From the IMG/VR virus record IMGVR_UViG_2585427748_000003: 13,854 bases of DNA. One strand, written 5' to 3'. Shown piece by piece: positions 3,129-12,212 of the stretch. A model generated the notes under the pieces. It saw only the letters and a program-made list of their open reading frames with translations. It was not told where the DNA came from and did no database searches. A program made the position numbers and the translations under genes. The DNA is from a virus (taxonomy: Duplodnaviria; Heunggongvirae; Uroviricota; Caudoviricetes). Position 1 is the first letter of the stretch, and each line of letters begins with the position of its first letter.

Positions 3129-3284
3129 TTACTCCTCAGGTTCGTAAGCTGTGAAGACAGCGACCTCCGTCTGGCCGGTTCGGATTCGTACCTCGCAGAG
3201 GTCTTTCCTCGTTACCAGTGCCGTCACAATGACGGTTAAACAGATGACGATCAGGGCGATTAGCATCGCCTTTTGCTGCTTCAT
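3129..3284 (-). CDS. hok: Hok/Gef-family type I toxin (small membrane peptide, 51 aa)
   Basis: Translation MKQQKAMLIALIVICLTVIVTALVTRKDLCEVRIRTGQTEVAVFTAYEPEE has the Hok/Gef hallmark (hydrophobic helix followed by conserved ..RKxLCEVxIRxGxxEVAxFxAYE..). AAGGAG SD 9 nt upstream. An in-frame upstream ATG at 3341 gives the track's 70-aa frame; whether that is a mok-like reading frame I cannot tell. Confidence 0.8.
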   Translation of the reverse strand: MKQQKAMLIALIVICLTVIVTALVTRKDLCEVRIRTGQTEVAVFTAYEPEE

Positions 3285-3329
3285 AGCCTGCTTCTCCTTG
3301 CCTTTCGGCACGTAAGAGGCTAACCTACG

Positions 3330-3400
3330 TGTGTAGAGCATAGATATGGCCTCAGATTAATGTTAAGCGTCTTGCCGGACGCGTAATGTTAACTGGGGCT
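3330..3400 (+). ncRNA. sok: Predicted Sok-like antisense RNA opposite the hok leader/upstream start region (approximate)
   Basis: By analogy with hok/sok loci only. Candidate plus-strand promoter TTGCCT (3298-3303), 17-bp spacer, TAACCT (3321-3326). No clear terminator found; boundaries are guesses. Confidence 0.2.
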
Positions 3401-3575
3401 TTTCTCTATCTGCCTTTTGGTGTTCATGCCTGAGACAGATAGCCTCAAGCACCCGCTGCAATTCTACTTAACTCTCCTTTTCCCGCAAACCGTTTTTATC
3501 CCCAGCGGCAAATCGAATACACCACCAGCGCCACCGCCATCGCAATTCCTACCGTTGTTAATGCTTCAGGCCAGG

Positions 3576-4094: not shown

Positions 4095-4358
4095 TTAACC
4101 CGCAGTGCTTTCAACTGATGAGGGGAACAAAATCTTTTCATCAAACCCTGCATTCATATCATGAACAGCAACACACCAATCCATCGACGAACGATTATCA
4201 AGAGCCTCCATGATTTCATCCATGCGGCGTAGGTCATACAGGTAAATGCTTTTATCGCCAATGGTGTAAAAGCCAATTTTTTTCGGTGATGGACAGCGAT
4301 CAAGAACTTCCTGTAATTCGTTCAACCATGCCCGTTCTTTTTTTGTCAAAGTTGCCAT
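4095..4358 (-). CDS. Hypothetical small protein (87 aa)
   Basis: Internal ATG at 4358 (MATLTKKERAWLNELQ..) preferred over the track's longer frame because an AAGGA SD sits 9 nt upstream and it abuts the stop of the upstream gene. Confidence 0.55.
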   Translation of the reverse strand: MATLTKKERAWLNELQEVLDRCPSPKKIGFYTIGDKSIYLYDLRRMDEIMEALDNRSSMDWCVAVHDMNAGFDEKILFPSSVESTAG

Positions 4359-4610: not shown

Positions 4611-4823
4611 TTAATCGTTGTGGTAACTCATGGCTTCATTTGCAGCATCAACCGGATCAACTTCCCACCAGCAATAATTTGGTGCGTTTCCTTCAGGTGT
4701 CCACGGTTCTAATTCATTTTTTGCCACATTCTCGTCGCCAGTAATTTTAAAAATCTGTTCAGAGAATTTTTTCACCCACTCGTTATATTTTTCAGTGTTA
4801 ATAATTTTCTGTGTATTTGACAT
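4611..4823 (-). CDS. Hypothetical small protein (70 aa)
   Basis: Strong GGAGGT SD 7 nt upstream of the ATG at 4823; protein-like composition. Confidence 0.65.
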   Translation of the reverse strand: MSNTQKIINTEKYNEWVKKFSEQIFKITGDENVAKNELEPWTPEGNAPNYCWWEVDPVDAANEAMSYHND

Positions 4824-8181: not shown

Positions 8182-8513
8182 TGAGGTTGACGATGGAATT
8201 TAAAGATTTACCAGTCCCATTCCAGGAAATGGCATCGAATGTGGTTCGCTCTCAACTGGCGACTCTTGACCTGAGTACCGTAGAAAAAGAAACCATCGAC
8301 AATATATCCGGTAACGTACGCCGAGCCTTTATCGGGCTGTACGAAGAGAAGCAGCTCTCTGATAACCAGGATTTACATGAAAAATACTTCCTGGATCTAA
8401 TGGACATCATTGATAAGGGGTTTGGCTTGTTAATGAAAAAGAAAGGGATTCGAATAGAACCCCTTGAAAATTACTTTGCAACAAAAAGCATTAATTCTTT
8501 TGATTCAAAATAA
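8181..8513 (+). CDS. Hypothetical acidic protein (110 aa; 106 aa if started at ATG 8193)
   Basis: Start overlaps the ydaF-like stop (TGATG); GAGG SD before the second ATG; AT-rich codon usage unlike the flanking genes. Confidence 0.5.
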   Translation: MRLTMEFKDLPVPFQEMASNVVRSQLATLDLSTVEKETIDNISGNVRRAFIGLYEEKQLSDNQDLHEKYFLDLMDIIDKGFGLLMKKKGIRIEPLENYFATKSINSFDSK

Positions 8514-8766
8514 GAGAATTAATTACAGACTTAACATGCTCTTTCTCATGATTGAAGCTCTCATGATTGAAAGTGCCGGGTTGAAGCGAGTCGATATAAT
8601 CAACAAGACTCTGTCGTACGACTTCATTTTTATCCATAACAGATGCAAGAAATGAAATTGCTAAAAGAGTTATATCACTACGCGCCGCAGCATGTTGCAA
8701 TGCTTTATCAAAATTATTAATCTGGCGTATCAGGGAGTTAATGATTTCATCATTTTCAGTCGACAT
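8491..8766 (-). CDS. Hypothetical protein (91 aa), convergent with and overlapping the 110-aa gene by 23 bp
   Basis: ATG at 8766 (MSTENDEIINSLIRQ..) with strong AGGAGG SD 6 nt upstream. The track's 162-aa version starts at a TTG and has an arginine-rich N-terminus that looks non-coding. Confidence 0.5.
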   Translation of the reverse strand: MSTENDEIINSLIRQINNFDKALQHAAARSDITLLAISFLASVMDKNEVVRQSLVDYIDSLQPGTFNHESFNHEKEHVKSVINSLILNQKN

Positions 8767-9039
8767 TTCACCCTCCTGAGGGTTGGTGATTAAGGAGTTC
8801 TCCACGGGTGAGGTGGAGTGCGTGCGCCGGACACGGGTGAGCATCCGGCACTGACAGTTTACTGAAAGGATATTTCCCTGAAAAGTCAGACCATAACGCG
8901 AAAGCGCACGGCGAGGTAGCTGGTTCATAGATAGCCTGTCGTTAAATTTTCGTCGACCGTGCGCTTCCGGTTGTGGCAATCCGCGAAATGGCGCGGCGGT
9001 AAGTATGGCGGGGTTATTCCTTCCCCCGTTGAGGACACC

Positions 9040-9076
9040 GGGTTGTCAGGTTGACCATACGCTTAAGTGACAACCC
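9040..9076. repeat. Inverted repeat GGGTTGTCA - 19 nt - TGACAACCC in the non-coding stretch of the pL operon
   Basis: 9-bp perfect arms at 9040-9048 and 9068-9076; no adjacent T-run on either strand, so not a canonical terminator. Confidence 0.4.
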
Positions 9077-9328
9077 CGCTGCAACGCCCTCTGTTATCAA
9101 TTTTCTGGTGACGTTTGGCGGTATCAGTTTTACTCCGTGACTGCTCTGCCGCCCTTTTTAAAGTGAATTTTGTGATGTGGTGAATGCGGCTGAGCGCACG
9201 CGGAACAGTTAAAACCAAAAACAGTGTTATGGGTGGATTCTCTGTATCCGGCGTTAATTGTTAACTGGTTAACGTCACCTGGAGGCACCAGGCACCGCAT
9301 CACAAAATTCATTGTTGAGGACGCGATA

Positions 9329-9517
9329 ATGGAAACGTTATTACCAAACGTTAATACGTCTGAAGGTTGTTTTGAAATTGGTGTCAATATCAGTAACCCT
9401 GTATTTACTGAAGATGCCATTAACAAGAGAAAACACGAACGGGAGCTATTAAATAAAATATGCATTCTTTCAATGCTGGCCCGTTTACGTCCGATACAAA
9501 AAGGATGCTGGCAATGA
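9329..9517 (+). CDS. Hypothetical small protein (62 aa)
   Basis: METLLPNVNTSEGCFEIGVNISNPVF..; GAGGA SD 8 nt upstream; its stop overlaps the next start (ATGA). Confidence 0.5.
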   Translation: METLLPNVNTSEGCFEIGVNISNPVFTEDAINKRKHERELLNKICILSMLARLRPIQKGCWQ

Positions 9518-9705
9518 ATACAGCATTTGCACTTGTTCTGACAGTTTTTCTTGTTTCCGGAGAGCCAGTTGATATTGCAGTCAGTGTTCACAGGACAATG
9601 CAGGAGTGTGTGACTGCAGCAACCGAACAGAAAATTCCCGGTAACTGTTACCCGGTCGATAAAGTTATTCACCAGGATAATAACGAAATCCCGGCAGGTC
9701 TTTAA
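9514..9705 (+). CDS. Small exported or membrane-anchored protein (63 aa)
   Basis: MNTAFALVLTVFLVSGEPVD.. has a signal-peptide-like hydrophobic N-terminus; AAGGA SD 8 nt upstream of ATG 9514. Confidence 0.55.
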   Translation: MNTAFALVLTVFLVSGEPVDIAVSVHRTMQECVTAATEQKIPGNCYPVDKVIHQDNNEIPAGL

Positions 9706-9797: not shown

Positions 9798-12212
9798 ATG
9801 AGTAAAGTCTTTATTTGCGCCGCCATTCCGGACGAACAGGCAATAAAGGAAGAAGGTGCCGTCGCTGTAGCCACTGCCATTGAAGCCGGTGATGAACGTC
9901 GCGCCCGCGCAAAATTTCACTGGCAATTCCTGGAACATTATCCGGCTGCTCAGGACTGCGCTTATAAATTTCTTGTCTGCGAGGATAAACCCGGTATACC
10001 CCGCCCTGCCCTCGATTCCTGGGATGCTGAATATATGCAGGAAAACCGCTGGGATGAGGAGTCTGCTTCCTTTGTCCCGGTTGAGACTGAATCCGATCCG
10101 ATGAACGTCACTTTTGACAAGCTGGCCCCTGAAGTACAGAACGCTGTCATGGTTAAGTTCGACACATGTGAAAACATCACCGTTGATATGGTTATTAGCG
10201 CACAGGAATTGTTGCAGGAAGACATGGCAACATTCGACGGACATATCGTTGAAGCGTTGATGAAAATGCCAGATGTTAACGCCATGTATCCGGAGCTTAA
10301 GCTGCATGCCATCGGGTGGGTTAAGCATAAATGTAAGCCTGGTGCCAAATGGCCCGAAATTCAGGCAGAGATGCGCATCTGGAAAAAACGTCGCGAAGGT
10401 GAACGCAAGGAAACCGGAAAATACACGTCTGTTGTTGATCTCGCCCGCGCCAGAGTCAATCAACAGCACACTGAAAATTCAACAGGAAAAATCAGCCTGG
10501 TCATTGCTGCCATTCATCGCGAATACAAGCAGACATGGAAAACACTGGATGACGAACTGGCCTACGCTCTCTGGCCTGGTGATGTGGATGCCGGAAACAT
10601 TGACGGCAGCATCCATCGCTGGGCAAAAAATGAAGTTATCGACAACGACCGCGAAGACTGGAAGCGTATCTCGGCATCAATGCGCAAACAGCCTGATGCC
10701 CTTCGCTACGACCGCCAGACTATTTTTGGCCTTGTCCGTGAACGTCCGATCGACATTCACAAAGACCCTGTGGCACTGAACAAATACATTACTGAATACC
10801 TGACTACAAAGGGCGTGTTTGAAGATGAAGGAAGAAATCAGAGCGCAACTGATACTCTCTCGTCGCCAGTACCAGAAACTGATGCAGTGGAAACGGCAAT
10901 TCCGGACAACGAAAAAACCGAATGCAAAGTGGAAGTCGAACCATCTGTAGAGCGTGAGGGGCCGTTCTACTTCCTCTTCACCGACAAGGATGGCGAAAAA
11001 TACGGTCGCGCAAACAAACTTTCTGGTCTGGATAAGGCACTGGCTGCCGGGGCTACTGAAATCACGAAAGAAGAATATTTCGCCCACAAAAACGGTACAT
11101 ACTCAGGTTCACAACAAAATACTGGTGCATCTGACACGACCGCACAACCAGGGCCGGTAAAAGTTACCGCTGACGAAGTAAACAAAATTATGCAGGCAGC
11201 CAATATCAGCCAGCCTGACGCCGATAAGTTGCTTGCTGCCTCTCGCGGAGAATTTGTTGCAGGGATTAGCGACCCGAATGATCCGAAATGGGTTAAGGGG
11301 ATCCAGACCCGCGATTCTGTAAACCAGAACCAGCATGAATCGGAACGGAACTACCAAAAAGCGGAACAAAACAGCCCAAATGCGTTACAAAACGAGCCAG
11401 AAACGAAACAGCCTGAACCAGTGGCGCAACAGGAAGTGGAAAAAGTCTGCACCGCCTGCGGTCAGACCGGCGGCGGCAATTGCCCTGATTGTGGCGCGGT
11501 GATGGGCGACGCAACATACCAGGAAACATTCGATGAAGAGTATCAGGTTGAAGTTCAGGAAGATGATCCGGAGGAAATGGAAGGCGCTGAACATCCACAC
11601 AAGGAGAACACTGGCGGCAATCAGCATCACGATAGCGATAATGAAACTGGCGAGACGGCAAATCACTCAATTAAGGTGAACAGTCATCACGTAATCACAT
11701 CCACCAGCAGGACGTGTGACCATCTAATGATAGACCTTGAAACCATGGGAAAAAATCCTGATGCCCCGATCATCTCAATAGGTGCAATATTTTTCGATCC
11801 GCAAACCGGAGATATGGGACCGGAATTTAGTAAGACTATCGATCTGGAAACTGCTGGCGGAGTCATTGATCGGGACACCATTAAATGGTGGCTTAAGCAA
11901 TCACGCGAAGCGCAATCTGCCATTATGACCGATGAAATCCCGTTAGATGATGCACTGTTACAATTGCGGGAATTTATCGACGAAAACTCCGGTGAATTTT
12001 TTGTTCAGGTCTGGGGAAATGGAGCCAACTTCGACAACACGATTTTGCGCCGTTCATACGAACGGCAGGGGATCCCCTGCCCGTGGCGTTACTACAACGA
12101 TCGCGATGTACGCACAATCGTTGAGCTGGGGAAAGCCATAGACTTCGATGCCAGAACGGCTATTCCATTCGAAGGTGAGCGCCATAATGCACTTGATGAC
12201 GCCCGTTACTAG
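9798..12212 (+). CDS. RecE/exodeoxyribonuclease VIII-like protein with a C-terminal DnaQ-like DEDDh 3'-5' exonuclease domain (about residues 644-804); ends at an in-frame TAG
   Basis: 804-aa ORF, GAGG SD 9 nt upstream, placed immediately upstream of xis-int as recE/exo is in lambdoid prophages. C-terminal motifs LMIDLETMG (Exo I), VWGNGANFDNT (Exo II), HNALDDARY (Exo III); Cys4 zinc-ribbon-like CTACGQTGGGNCPDCG in the linker. The RecE-like assignment of the N-terminal/linker region is from memory. Confidence 0.8.
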   Translation: MSKVFICAAIPDEQAIKEEGAVAVATAIEAGDERRARAKFHWQFLEHYPAAQDCAYKFLVCEDKPGIPRPALDSWDAEYMQENRWDEESASFVPVETESDPMNVTFDKLAPEVQNAVMVKFDTCENITVDMVISAQELLQEDMATFDGHIVEALMKMPDVNAMYPELKLHAIGWVKHKCKPGAKWPEIQAEMRIWKKRREGERKETGKYTSVVDLARARVNQQHTENSTGKISLVIAAIHREYKQTWKTLDDELAYALWPGDVDAGNIDGSIHRWAKNEVIDNDREDWKRISASMRKQPDALRYDRQTIFGLVRERPIDIHKDPVALNKYITEYLTTKGVFEDEGRNQSATDTLSSPVPETDAVETAIPDNEKTECKVEVEPSVEREGPFYFLFTDKDGEKYGRANKLSGLDKALAAGATEITKEEYFAHKNGTYSGSQQNTGASDTTAQPGPVKVTADEVNKIMQAANISQPDADKLLAASRGEFVAGISDPNDPKWVKGIQTRDSVNQNQHESERNYQKAEQNSPNALQNEPETKQPEPVAQQEVEKVCTACGQTGGGNCPDCGAVMGDATYQETFDEEYQVEVQEDDPEEMEGAEHPHKENTGGNQHHDSDNETGETANHSIKVNSHHVITSTSRTCDHLMIDLETMGKNPDAPIISIGAIFFDPQTGDMGPEFSKTIDLETAGGVIDRDTIKWWLKQSREAQSAIMTDEIPLDDALLQLREFIDENSGEFFVQVWGNGANFDNTILRRSYERQGIPCPWRYYNDRDVRTIVELGKAIDFDARTAIPFEGERHNALDDARY

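Follow-up and report, generated by a model that had tools for sequence, protein, structure and literature searches.

Positions 8767 to 9328 of the window (the whole 13,854-nt stretch of viral DNA analyzed here) very probably belong to the early-left (dicBp/PL-like) operon of a lambdoid prophage and represent its non-coding dicF segment, a judgment that applies jointly to the identity of dicF, the scheme of its processing, and the placement of a structured RNA domain, block A, upstream of it. The inverted repeat that a sequence-only reading of this DNA had singled out (GGGTTGTCA / TGACAACCC at 9040-9048 / 9068-9076, with 19 nt between the arms) is present but should not be equated with DicF or with a mapped RNase III site: in the 190-nt precursor of DicF, it forms helix P3 of a conserved domain. 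The locus is already known as the dicF region. Since it has been under study since 1989, the flagged finding by itself adds nothing new, and the flagged stretch is an ordinary one with a modestly interesting RNA domain inside it.

The prophage is of the PPompW type, is integrated beside ompW, and is apparently intact; the same arrangement occurs in plaque-forming phages, e.g., mEp460 and PPompW. From window position ~8783 to the start of dicB, alignment showed ~98.6% identity to E. coli K-12 (NC_000913.3) with a single 1-nt indel. Matches to K-12 span window positions 8781-9600 (query 382-1201), and 4744 of 5426 complete E. coli genomes match some part of 8400-9600. Pfam matches to DicB, DUF1482, and DUF1391 confirmed the synteny, with DUF1391 and racR upstream, where immunity genes of the RacR/DicA type are located, and the dicB start 175 nt past DicF. 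The sequence-only reading had postulated a long structured leader in the pL operon; this untranslated stretch is the dicF region, and its end at 9328 was placed exactly, as the dicB ATG lies at 9329. A polycistronic mRNA passing through the region would continue into dicB, a ydfD-like gene, an exonuclease gene, xis, and int (Table 1).

Like the dicBF operon of the K-12 Qin prophage (ydfABC-dicF-dicB-ydfDE), the locus carries an identical DicF, dicB and a ydfD-like gene at the same downstream positions, and an upstream DUF1391 (ydfA-like) gene with a DicA/RacR-type repressor. It differs from Qin in being part of an apparently intact PPompW-type element with RacR-type immunity, in a few point changes, and in an indel of 1 nt within the P2 hairpin. 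In place of ydfB and ydfC it has a 106-aa gene and, on the opposite strand, a 91-aa gene, so that DicF here is not a "3' UTR of ydfC". The 91-aa gene has a Shine-Dalgarno sequence, AGGAGGG (complement of 8771-8777), 4 nt ahead of its ATG, and matched no Pfam or PHROG family; K-12 homology begins only at ~8781. This gene lies on the minus strand within a plus-strand operon, and the earlier reading was silent as to its strand.

Table 1. Features of the dicF region and its borders, in window coordinates.
Feature	Position	Strand	Basis or detail
91-aa gene, left boundary of the region	8491..8766	-	ORF; position taken by ydfC in K-12
Long untranslated dicF region of a dicBF-type (PL-like) operon	8781..9328	+	Homologous to the K-12 Qin ydfC-dicB spacer
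Two small hairpins	8800..8849	+	CTCCAC-GGGTGAG-GTGGAG (8800-8818) and GCCGGA-CACGGGTGAGCA-TCCGGC (8826-8849); read from sequence
P-III, long imperfect helix of ~25 bp	8892..8975	+	8892-8916/8951-8975 with a 34-nt apical insert; inferred RNase III site
Block A, 116-nt structured RNA domain, 5' body of the 190-nt pre-DicF	8970..9085	+	Covariation, folding, covariance model
P0	8970-8977/9078-9085	+	Block A helix
P1	8981-8985/8992-8996	+	Block A helix
P2a	8998-9000/9037-9039	+	Block A helix
P2	9009-9013/9024-9028	+	Block A helix; C/U-rich loop
P3	9040-9048/9068-9076 (9040..9076)	+	Flagged inverted repeat (I6); 19-nt conserved loop GGUUGACCAUACGCUUAAG
P3b	9049-9051/9061-9063	+	Block A helix
Candidate pseudoknot	9003-9008/9055-9060	+	GUAUGG/CCAUAC; block A
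A/U-rich linker ending at the RNase E site	9086..9101	+	Cut between 9101 and 9102, after AUCAAU and before UUUCUGG
DicF sRNA, 53 nt by K-12 annotation	9102..9154	+	Rfam RF00039; identity to b1574
Block C, STnc100-like multi-branched structure	9156..9320	+	Closed by a ~27-bp helix (9156-9183/9292-9320); core 9164-9182/9293-9311
dicB, 62 aa, first gene past the untranslated region	9329..9517	+	Pfam DicB PF05358, E 9.9e-37; PGAP annotation in E. coli E7476

An Rfam scan, which the sequence-only reading had proposed, found DicF (RF00039) at 9103-9154 on the plus strand over the whole model (1-52/52), scoring 76.7 bits (E 7.8e-16) where the gathering score is 48. Positions 9102-9154 are 100% identical to K-12 DicF (b1574), seed regions included. 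The suspicion of an unannotated ncRNA was therefore right as to the ncRNA and wrong as to its novelty, since this RNA, which that reading did not recognize, is an annotated ncRNA in NC_000913.3. In the Rfam structure line, pairs 9117-9123/9147-9153 and 9125-9128/9140-9143 form the terminator hairpin (9117-9153), which is followed by a U-tract at 9155-9159 (TTTTT). A simple terminator scan missed this terminator because its loop exceeds 8 nt.

[quoted passage not shown] The 53-nt DicF species depends on RNase E (PMC10448788; PMC5069750), and the 190-nt species depends on RNase III, as mapped by primer extension, with no internal promoter found (PMC10448788). The 3' ends of DicF lie at the terminator and at the end of a 72-nt RNase III product (PMC5069750; PMC9438474). 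The 5' end of K-12 DicF (b1574; position 2383 of locus L003) maps to window position 9102, at the end of a linker that is variable or absent in other cassette types. Generation by RNase E (5' end) and by RNase III or termination, binding of Hfq, and repression of ftsZ are assumed to carry over from the K-12 copy (PMC10448788; PMC5069750).

Two dyads larger than the flagged one, both unmentioned in the earlier reading, lie close by. The first, of 13 nt (I3; 8899-8911/8957-8969), is the core of helix P-III, which has a duplex energy between -25 and -37 kcal/mol in every lambdoid variant and whose strands covary between types (GCGAAAGCGCACGG/CCGUGCGCUUCCG vs. GAUGAGGGCAUU/AAGUGCUCUCAGC, and also AGGUAAGAGCAUUCC/GGAGUGCUCUUUCC). 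We infer that cleavage of P-III generates the 5' end of the 190-nt species at ~8965-8970. A boxA/nut-like "UGCUCUCUUCG" just upstream of block A in type-2 phages was rejected as such, for it is the 3' strand of this RNase III helix and covaries with its 5' partner. The second dyad, of 19 nt (I1), is the core of block C. Folding of 9156-9345 gave -69.4 kcal/mol (z -5.78), with 0 of 200 shuffles as good, and the 3' strand of the element runs into the dicB Shine-Dalgarno sequence GAGGA (9317-9321). The block C helix would be the RNase III site that yields the 72-nt DicF 3' end (~9173). For both helices, the window positions of the cuts, including the 190-nt end, were deduced from product lengths and not from primary data.

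Block C is also found alone, in Rac-SA53, D6, and P7. It resembles the STnc100/PasD family, in that 9152-9361 aligns to the full 206-nt STnc100 model (RF02076, 1-206), has a long closing helix, and shares the conserved motifs GGUGAAUGCGG...CACC(U/G)GGAGGCACC(A/C)GGCACC; P1 carries a similar element upstream of tciA. However, the score of 38.7 bits (E 7.7e-7) is below the gathering score of 47, and we regard the element as related without filing it as a member. This prophage sRNA family has been discussed elsewhere (bioRxiv 10.64898/2026.05.13.724894); the Pas sRNAs are described from the late (Q, lysis, TerB) region, whereas the element here is a dicB leader and RNase III substrate in the early-left operon.

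The sequence-only reading had also proposed covariance analysis across homologous prophages, and covariation supports the modeled block A fold, P3 included: four to five helices with a candidate pseudoknot. For block A, the minimum free energy (MFE) structure, the centroid, and the comparative model are the same, and RNAalifold independently recovered P1, P2, P2a, P3, and P3b. In an alignment (A5) that was fitted to the model, from homologues gathered with patterns fixing two conserved segments, so that apparent conservation and pairing are inflated, 96.7% of the pairs were formed vs. 29-54% when the model was slid. Ten pairs were altered on both sides (0 of 500 shuffles), the number of independent compensatory events being small because most sequences are closely related. 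The P2 stem occurs in at least six different sequences. P3 shows compensatory changes in 5 of its 9 pairs, with variants in Izhakiella (GGGUAACCA/UGGUUACCC), P1-like (GAGUUGCCA/UGGCAACUC), and Citrobacter (GGAUUGUCA/UGGCAAUCC) copies and G-U wobble pairs in Erwinia and Salmonella phage copies. A covariance model of block A, R1, matched 38 loci; P0 is imperfect in P1/P7 and P1 is missing in one phage (L129).

Folding energy does not set the domain apart. Neither block A (z -0.80) nor the 190-nt RNA (z -1.9) folded better than shuffled sequences, and among the z-scores for block A, the 190-nt RNA, the upstream 200 nt, and block C, only that of block C was significant. In dinucleotide-preserving shuffles of 8767-9328 (n = 300), perfect inverted repeats with arms of 9 bp or more and loops of 3-30 nt arose in 4.3%, so that, taken alone, the inverted repeat is only marginally above chance. 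The significance of the dyad comes from conservation and covariation, not from repeat statistics.

Copies of block A are present in lambdoid prophages from several genera of Enterobacterales, as well as in the ban leader of P1/P7. In P1/P7, Stx2c-type phages, Citrobacter, Trabulsiella, Erwinia, and Izhakiella it is kept as a discrete block, at 77-90% identity, beside unrelated flanks. A variable hairpin-terminator cassette always lies 3' of it; at least 10 different cassettes were found linked to block A, DicF being one type, and block A is more conserved than DicF itself. The P1/P7 ban-operon leader, annotated as a "dicF-like region" (misc_feature, NC_005856 68791-68892), contains a block A homologue of 77-82% identity (97-99 bits with R1) in which P1, P2, P3, and the pseudoknot are preserved through compensatory changes and an intrinsic terminator comes next. 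In contrast to the lambdoid copies, it contains no DicF by Rfam even at E 0.1, its P0 is of another, imperfect sequence, and tRNA genes and ban, not dicB, lie downstream; it also lacks the RNase III helix, because the domain begins ~25 nt past the Pban promoters. At E <= 1, Rfam yielded no family for block A in 8700-9400; five divergent loci likewise gave none. The searchable literature gave no description of block A, although an older account of similarity upstream of dicF may exist, and the P1 annotation suggests that the upstream similarity had been noticed.

A tRNA- or tmRNA-like identity was rejected. Block A has the topology of a four-way junction, with junctions and loops that do not resemble those of tRNA; ARAGORN detected no gene either in the window or at 9 related loci, and Rfam gave no tRNA match in 8700-9400. 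T-arm-like hairpins (GGTTCAATTCC) upstream in the Erwinia, Izhakiella, and Salmonella phage copies were likewise negative by ARAGORN and Rfam.

The distribution of block A points, at not quite an even chance in our judgment, to an undescribed RNA family (~116 nt, with a four-way junction and a pseudoknot) that would serve as a conserved chassis for interchangeable hairpin-terminator sRNA cassettes of Enterobacterales phages, released by RNase III in lambdoid elements or by a nearby upstream promoter in P1/P7. DicF would then be merely the best-known cassette. As to its role in the present operon, we tentatively favor, a little more cautiously still, block A as a folding and processing scaffold (a 5' cap) of pre-DicF. 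In the proposed processing scheme, P-III would form first and be cut by RNase III, leaving an RNA of ~190 nt. This cut would liberate GUUGUG (8970-8975), previously held in P-III, to pair within 9078-9085, closing block A by a switch to P0. Most transcription would end at the DicF terminator, and RNase E would cleave the exposed A/U linker at 9101/9102 to give the 53-nt, Hfq-dependent DicF, which represses ftsZ, xylR, pykA, and manX. Read-through RNA would instead form the ~27-bp helix of block C, whose cleavage by RNase III would produce the 72-nt DicF and separate the dicB mRNA.

RNase E-processed sRNAs derived from 3' UTRs or from within operons, such as the adaptor-guided GlmZ-RapZ system, offer a general analogy to this scheme: a structured body lies upstream, RNase E cuts a single-stranded A/U linker, and the product keeps a terminator hairpin. 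Here, however, it is RNase III that would free the upstream body, whose sequence is much better conserved than that of the sRNA cassettes, and we know of no adaptor protein for DicF; the resemblance would be functional only.

That block A, including the dyad, might instead be a cis-acting sensor or attenuator (riboswitch-like, protein-binding, or RNAP-modifying), setting termination at DicF vs. read-through into dicB-exo-xis-int, strikes us as unlikely. It does have the look of an aptamer joined to an expression platform: a conserved, pseudoknotted, multi-helix domain with an intrinsic terminator within 10-70 nt in every homologue, placed within early operons in need of read-through, either in the leader or farther inside, and, in P1/P7, ~25 nt past the Pban start and before the tRNAs and ban. 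Moreover, the J1/2 segment "GGCGGUA" (8995-9001) repeats the 5' arm of the terminator, and the unconstrained MFE structure of the 190-nt RNA (-69.9 kcal/mol, vs. -66.4 for the comparative model with the pseudoknot excluded) is another fold, in which J1/2 pairs with the 3' arm. Although present in the window MFE, this complementarity is not conserved in P1/P7, and anti-terminator pairing was set aside as the main reading and kept as a rival. An Rfam riboswitch match is absent, and we know of no ligand or factor for block A. The put RNAs of HK022, cis-acting antiterminator RNAs of two stem-loops in the PL/PR leaders, are comparable as structured RNAs in lambdoid early operons, upstream of terminators, in phages without an obvious N protein. 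However, they share no sequence or structure similarity with block A and lack the four-way junction and pseudoknot proposed for it; a search of HK022 22-34 kb with R1, filters off, gave a best score of only 8.8 bits (E 0.29), and a put-like antiterminator was rejected. Published data, furthermore, show that termination at the DicF terminator is efficient, with a longer transcript visible only upon inactivation of RNase E (PMC10448788).

Improbable to a similar degree is a trans-acting or protein-sequestering role, in which the 190-nt species or a ~137-nt 5' fragment would be active, either through a second seed (the C/U-rich, anti-Shine-Dalgarno-like P2 loop) or as a GlmZ-RapZ-like decoy or adaptor module. 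Covariation in the P2 stem, together with a UCCU/CUCC motif that its loop retains in nearly every variant, and the greater conservation of block A than of the 3' cassettes after it would fit such a role, but the Citrobacter loop lacks the motif (UUACGCUUU) and the conservation is explained equally by a role in cis. We know of no targets or partners of block A and of no report of a stable 5' fragment, which also counts against this reading. [quoted passage not shown] Two possible pairing partners of the P2 loop, the adjacent GAGGA and the Shine-Dalgarno sequence of dicB, were rejected because the pairing is not conserved, and the GTTGAGGAC repeat (9028/9314) is at chance level.

Most copies of block A are >95% identical and its thermodynamic z-score is not significant, as would be expected of a hitch-hiking spacer with no function of its own, conserved through the recent recombinational spread of prophage modules. 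We nevertheless consider this very unlikely, since block A persists as a discrete block at 77-90% identity beside unrelated flanks in several phages and genera, its boundaries coincide with helix P0, and its helices show compensatory changes while loops and junctions are invariant.

The sequence-only reading had also raised a regulator-binding site. That a phage or host protein binds the dyad and the other repeats as DNA, at an operator or recombination site, is scarcely credible, even though the dyad is a perfect 9-bp palindrome-like element in a phage regulatory region and such repeats are rare in shuffles. Its arms are 19 nt apart with a loop that is itself conserved, and they tolerate compensatory changes and G-U pairs, as fits a helix in plus-strand RNA; such wobbles, which would be A-C mismatches on the other strand, maintain pairing in P0, P3, and P3b. 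The site also has no promoter close to it and is ~1 kb into a transcription unit. The 10-bp direct repeat reported by that reading (CACGGGTGAG at 8803-8812 and 8832-8841) exists and is the rarer of the two by chance (0.7% of the same shuffles had a direct repeat of 10 nt or longer within 60 nt). It sits in the loops of both hairpins at 8800-8849, loops that vary among relatives (GGATAAGAA), in which the first hairpin is replaced; relatives L007 and L119 have lost the 29 nt between the repeat copies, and folding of 8775-8975 was no better than that of shuffles (z -0.94). With variable loops and a tolerated deletion between the copies, a functional role for the repeat was rejected, and repeat and hairpins are probably dispensable.

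We give almost no weight to the region coding for small proteins, whether a 31-aa ORF (8959-9054) that matches phrog_8854 (E 6e-19) or the 145-aa minus-strand CDS (8491-8928; WP_001351093.1) to which PGAP lengthens the 91-aa gene, despite the hypothetical proteins annotated here by PGAP and in several phage records. No frame remains open on either strand across the 38 homologues, the frames are broken in most of them, length differences of 1, 2, and 4 nt (not multiples of three) fall within the ORFs, and the window has stops in all three minus frames. K-12 has a 1-nt indel within the 31-aa ORF, which has no ribosome-binding site, and the 91-aa start has a strong Shine-Dalgarno sequence, while the 145-aa start enters DNA common to K-12, where the gene is absent. 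The sequence-only reading's view that the stretch lacks convincing coding capacity thus holds: no plus-strand ORF with a ribosome-binding site occurs from 8767 to dicB, and the conserved small-protein gene that would have spoken against that view was not found among these homologues.

Returning to block A as a conserved RNA domain of pre-DicF, the 137 nt ahead of DicF in the 190-nt precursor, so far treated as spacer, fold as a discrete domain. If the domain is indeed a chassis for exchangeable cassettes, it would be a module dedicated to the biogenesis or regulation of a whole family of phage sRNAs, with possible roles in guiding RNase E, in binding Hfq or an adaptor, or in sensing a signal that sets termination vs. 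read-through. Should block A control processing or termination, it could explain how the output of DicF and DicB is set after relief of repression and why EHEC strains retain several copies of dicF, and it would define a family of phage sRNAs missed by current Rfam models.

An Rfam scan with curated thresholds placed DicF (RF00039) at 9103-9154 (+), with 76.7 bits against a gathering threshold of 48 over the full model, inside the ~560 bp (8767-9328) that the sequence-only reading had found to lack convincing coding capacity. The ORF layout was as that reading had described it, with the next plus-strand gene beginning at 9329, and the gene next after the DicF region is dicB (Pfam DicB, E 9.9e-37). 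Downstream of dicB lie a DUF1482 ydfD-like gene and an exonuclease gene, and upstream of the region is a DUF1391 ydfA-like gene. From ~8781 to dicB, identity to the ydfC-dicB spacer of K-12 Qin is about 98.6%, and window 9102-9154 is 100% identical to K-12 DicF (b1574). Because of the Rfam match, the dicB synteny, and the identity to K-12 Qin, the ~560 bp is the "long untranslated region containing dicF" of the dicBF operon (PMC5069750), and as such the flagged region was already known. The general interpretation offered earlier (a structured leader, a regulator-binding site, an antitermination or processing element, or an unannotated ncRNA) was broadly of the right kind, although DicF itself was not recognised.

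In E. coli E7476, a prophage adjoining ompW, with RacR-type immunity, xis, and int, is essentially identical to the window. Further matches are the PPompW phages and mEp460, a phage that forms plaques. Of 5426 complete E. coli genomes, 4744 match some part of 8400-9600, at up to 10 places per genome. The exonuclease ORF (9798-12212), whose C-terminus carries an Rv2179c-like 3'-5' exonuclease domain, stops at a TAG (12210-12212) where E. coli E7476 has CAG; the PGAP-annotated protein is 19 residues longer. Elsewhere, a hok/sok type I toxin-antitoxin module occupies 3129-3454 (-), with Rfam sok (RF01794, 117 bits) at 3279-3454 (-) and a hokD-like ORF (MKQQKAMLIALIVICLTVIVTALVTRKDLCEVRIRTGQTEVAVFTAYEPEE) within 3129-3341 (-).

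The minus-strand 91-aa gene (8491-8766) has a strong Shine-Dalgarno sequence and is extended by PGAP to 145 aa (8491-8928), and a 31-aa ORF at 8959-9054 matches phrog_8854. Neither the 145-aa CDS nor the 31-aa ORF is credible as a gene: no reading frame runs uninterrupted through the 38 homologues, homologue lengths differ by 1, 2, or 4 nt, and a 1-nt indel separates K-12 from the window within the 31-aa ORF. Both look like calls made on conserved non-coding DNA. Since the extra 54 codons of the PGAP call run into DNA about 98% identical to the non-coding K-12 spacer, the long start is probably an over-extension. The 91-aa gene itself has no Pfam or PHROG family and sits in a plus-strand PL-like operon at the K-12 ydfC position; a consensus scan found no promoter for it.

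DicF is derived from a polycistronic transcript initiated at dicBp, with no internal promoter found; the 5' end of its 190-nt species is generated by RNase III and that of its 53-nt species by RNase E, and its 3' end is formed either at a Rho-independent terminator or, in a 72-nt species, by RNase III (PMC10448788, PMC5069750, PMC9438474). We took the enzyme dependencies from this literature and infer the cut positions in the window. Counted back from the 3' end, the 190-nt species would begin at about 8965-8970, in the putative RNase III helix P-III, which was found in every lambdoid homologue (-25 to -37 kcal/mol) and whose strands covary between sequence types. The 72-nt 3' end would fall at about 9173, in the 5' strand of the helix closing block C, the structured segment 3' of DicF. 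The block C fold has z = -5.78 (0 of 200 shuffles equally stable), and the 3' strand of its closing helix extends to the dicB Shine-Dalgarno sequence. Block C aligned, below threshold (38.7 bits vs 47, E 7.7e-7), with the Rfam STnc100 model in its full length; STnc100 is a member of a prophage RNA family for which a link to PasD was recently described (bioRxiv 10.64898/2026.05.13.724894). Phage P1 (L004 2842-2961) has a sub-threshold STnc100-like element (33.4 bits) upstream of tciA (terB-like) that resembles block C (GGUGAAUGCGGCU.AGCGCACGCGG ... CACC.GGA.GCACC.GGCACCGCA). The sole promoter-like match near the region, at 9237-9264 (-) (TTAACA-16-GAGAAT), belongs to a class whose count is at chance level; transcription from it, were it active, would run toward the 91-aa gene, antisense to block A, DicF, and block C.

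Structural features of the dicF untranslated region (window positions)
Feature	5' strand or span	3' strand	Description
Small hairpins	8800-8818; 8826-8849		direct repeat in loops
P-III	8892-8916	8951-8975	~25-bp imperfect helix; 3' strand contains inferred 190-nt 5' end
P0	8970-8977	9078-9085	closing helix of block A
P1	8981-8985	8992-8996	hairpin
P2a	8998-9000	9037-9039	3-bp helix
P2	9009-9013	9024-9028	hairpin, C/U-rich loop
P3	9040-9048	9068-9076	dyad of the sequence-only reading
P3b	9049-9051	9061-9063	P3 extension
Candidate pseudoknot	9003-9008	9055-9060	GUAUGG with CCAUAC in P3 loop
Block C	9156-9320		multi-branched structure closed by ~27-bp helix

Block A is a 116-nt RNA domain (8970-9085) upstream of DicF. 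Its GUUGUG (8970-8975) pairs either with CAUAAC (8892-8897), forming the base of P-III, or with 9080-9085 in P0, and the two pairings are mutually exclusive. Cleavage of P-III by RNase III would remove the upstream partner and allow P0 to close block A, a putative processing-coupled rearrangement, and the 190-nt species would then comprise block A, a 16-nt A/U linker, and DicF. Phages P1 and P7, in contrast, lack P-III; their Pban promoters lie about 25 nt before the domain and would generate a comparable 5' end in another way. An Hfq-enriched interval lies upstream of dicF (PMC4152368), which agrees with block A RNA being made and bound in vivo.

For isolated block A, the MFE structure, the centroid, and the comparative model coincide, and RNAalifold on 18 diverse sequences independently gave helices P1, P2, P2a, P3, and P3b and part of P0. 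The folding z-score of the domain, -0.8, is not significant. With search patterns that fixed two conserved segments and many sequences being close relatives, 95.3% of cells pair in the MAFFT alignment of homologues (A4), against 33-57% with slid partners, and 7 pairs are changed on both sides; in the model-fitted alignment (A5), which leans towards the model, 96.7% pair against 29-54%, and 10 pairs are changed on both sides, including 5 of the 9 P3 pairs, a level reached in 0 of 500 shuffles. Compensatory changes in P3 occur in Izhakiella (GGGUAACCA/UGGUUACCC) and in phage P1-like elements (GAGUUGCCA/UGGCAACUC), the pseudoknot reads GCAUGG/CCAUGC in phage P1, a U-A pair of P2a becomes C-G in phage P7, and P2 occurs with at least six different stem sequences, its loop keeping a UCCU/CUCC-like tract.

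Both repeats described previously were present. The inverted repeat GGGTTGTCA-19 nt-TGACAACCC is neither DicF nor the mapped RNase III site; it is helix P3 of block A. By itself the dyad is only marginally unusual, since 4.3% of 300 dinucleotide-preserving shuffles of 8767-9328 contain a perfect inverted repeat of the same size. Larger dyads absent from the earlier description span 19 nt (9164-9182/9293-9311) and 13 nt (8899-8911/8957-8969). The direct repeat CACGGGTGAG (8803-8812 and 8832-8841) has an equal within 60 nt in 0.7% of the same shuffles; the hairpins that hold it have variable loops among relatives, where the first hairpin is itself replaced. Two homologous loci (L007 and L119) lack exactly 29 nt between the CACGGGTGAG copies (equivalent of window 8803-8841), which looks like a recombination or slippage deletion between direct repeats. 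Folding of the left part (8781-8890) was no better than that of shuffles, and we assign it no function.

BLAST against phage genomes showed the region to be mosaic. Window ~8970-9093 alone recurs in several phages: identity is about 89% in Stx2c-converting phages, Ayreon, cdtI, and 2H10, about 84% in Salmonella phage F1055, and 77-82% in the ban-operon leader of phages P1 and P7, where the copy overlaps a GenBank feature named "dicF-like region". Rfam DicF was not found in the P1, Stx2c-phage, and Ayreon copies, even at E 0.1, and gave no match in five divergent genome loci. Pattern scans recovered at least 120 IMG/VR contigs and, with one genome per species, copies in Escherichia, Shigella, Citrobacter, Trabulsiella, Erwinia, and Izhakiella, together with near-identical copies in a few MAGs of unrelated assigned taxa and two chance matches. 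In all copies a short cassette ending in an intrinsic terminator comes after the conserved block, and it is of varying type: canonical DicF and at least nine others were seen. Non-canonical hairpin-terminator cassettes lie 3' of block A in L005 (1987-2180), L144, L033, L085, L103, L007, L022, and L027 (Stx2c/Ayreon/cdtI example, UUUGGCGGUACCAG...CUGGUACCGCUCUUUUU), and may be phage sRNAs, differing in seed, that have so far gone unrecognised. In longer cassettes (Salmonella phage F1055-like, Erwinia, Izhakiella, Trabulsiella; L047 1354-1440, L150 ~4660-4764, L151 ~2500-2604, L135 ~4238-4343), a Shine-Dalgarno sequence and an AUG lie within the terminator hairpin, e.g., AGGAGAGCGAAGAUAAUGUUCUACCGUGGUACCGCCUUUUUU, which suggests that termination is coupled to translation initiation of a downstream small ORF. 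In L150, L151, and L047, two hairpins with canonical tRNA T-arm-like sequences (GCAGG-UUCAAUU-CCUGC and GUCCG-UUCAAUU-CGGAC) sit in the insert at the apex of the RNase III helix, ~60-120 nt 5' of block A; ARAGORN and Rfam found no tRNA or tmRNA at this place.

As to its role, we tentatively favour block A as a folding and processing scaffold that caps the pre-DicF 5' end and exposes the linker to RNase E. It is unlikely that block A is instead an attenuator or sensor setting termination versus read-through into dicB-exo-xis-int, even with a terminator ending every cassette, and just as unlikely that it acts as an independent trans-acting or protein-binding RNA through the anti-SD-like loop of P2. 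Absence of function is more doubtful again; the folding z-score of the block is not significant (-0.8), and its pairs change on both sides. A DNA site at the dyad is very improbable, because the G-U pairs frequent in P0, P3, and P3b put the structure on plus-strand RNA and not on DNA, and a coding region, despite the phrog_8854 match, is equally so. Block A is not a tRNA (ARAGORN), matches no Rfam family, and is not put-like (block A covariance model against HK022).

Block A was absent from Rfam 15 and from the searchable literature, older primary papers being outside reach, and the phage P1 "dicF-like region" annotation indicates that sequence similarity, at least, had been noticed earlier. 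As a domain, block A is discrete and modular, shows covariation, is shared between this locus and phages P1 and P7, and is coupled to many cassette types. The chances are nearly even that it represents an undescribed RNA family, a conserved chassis for interchangeable sRNA cassettes of which DicF would be one.
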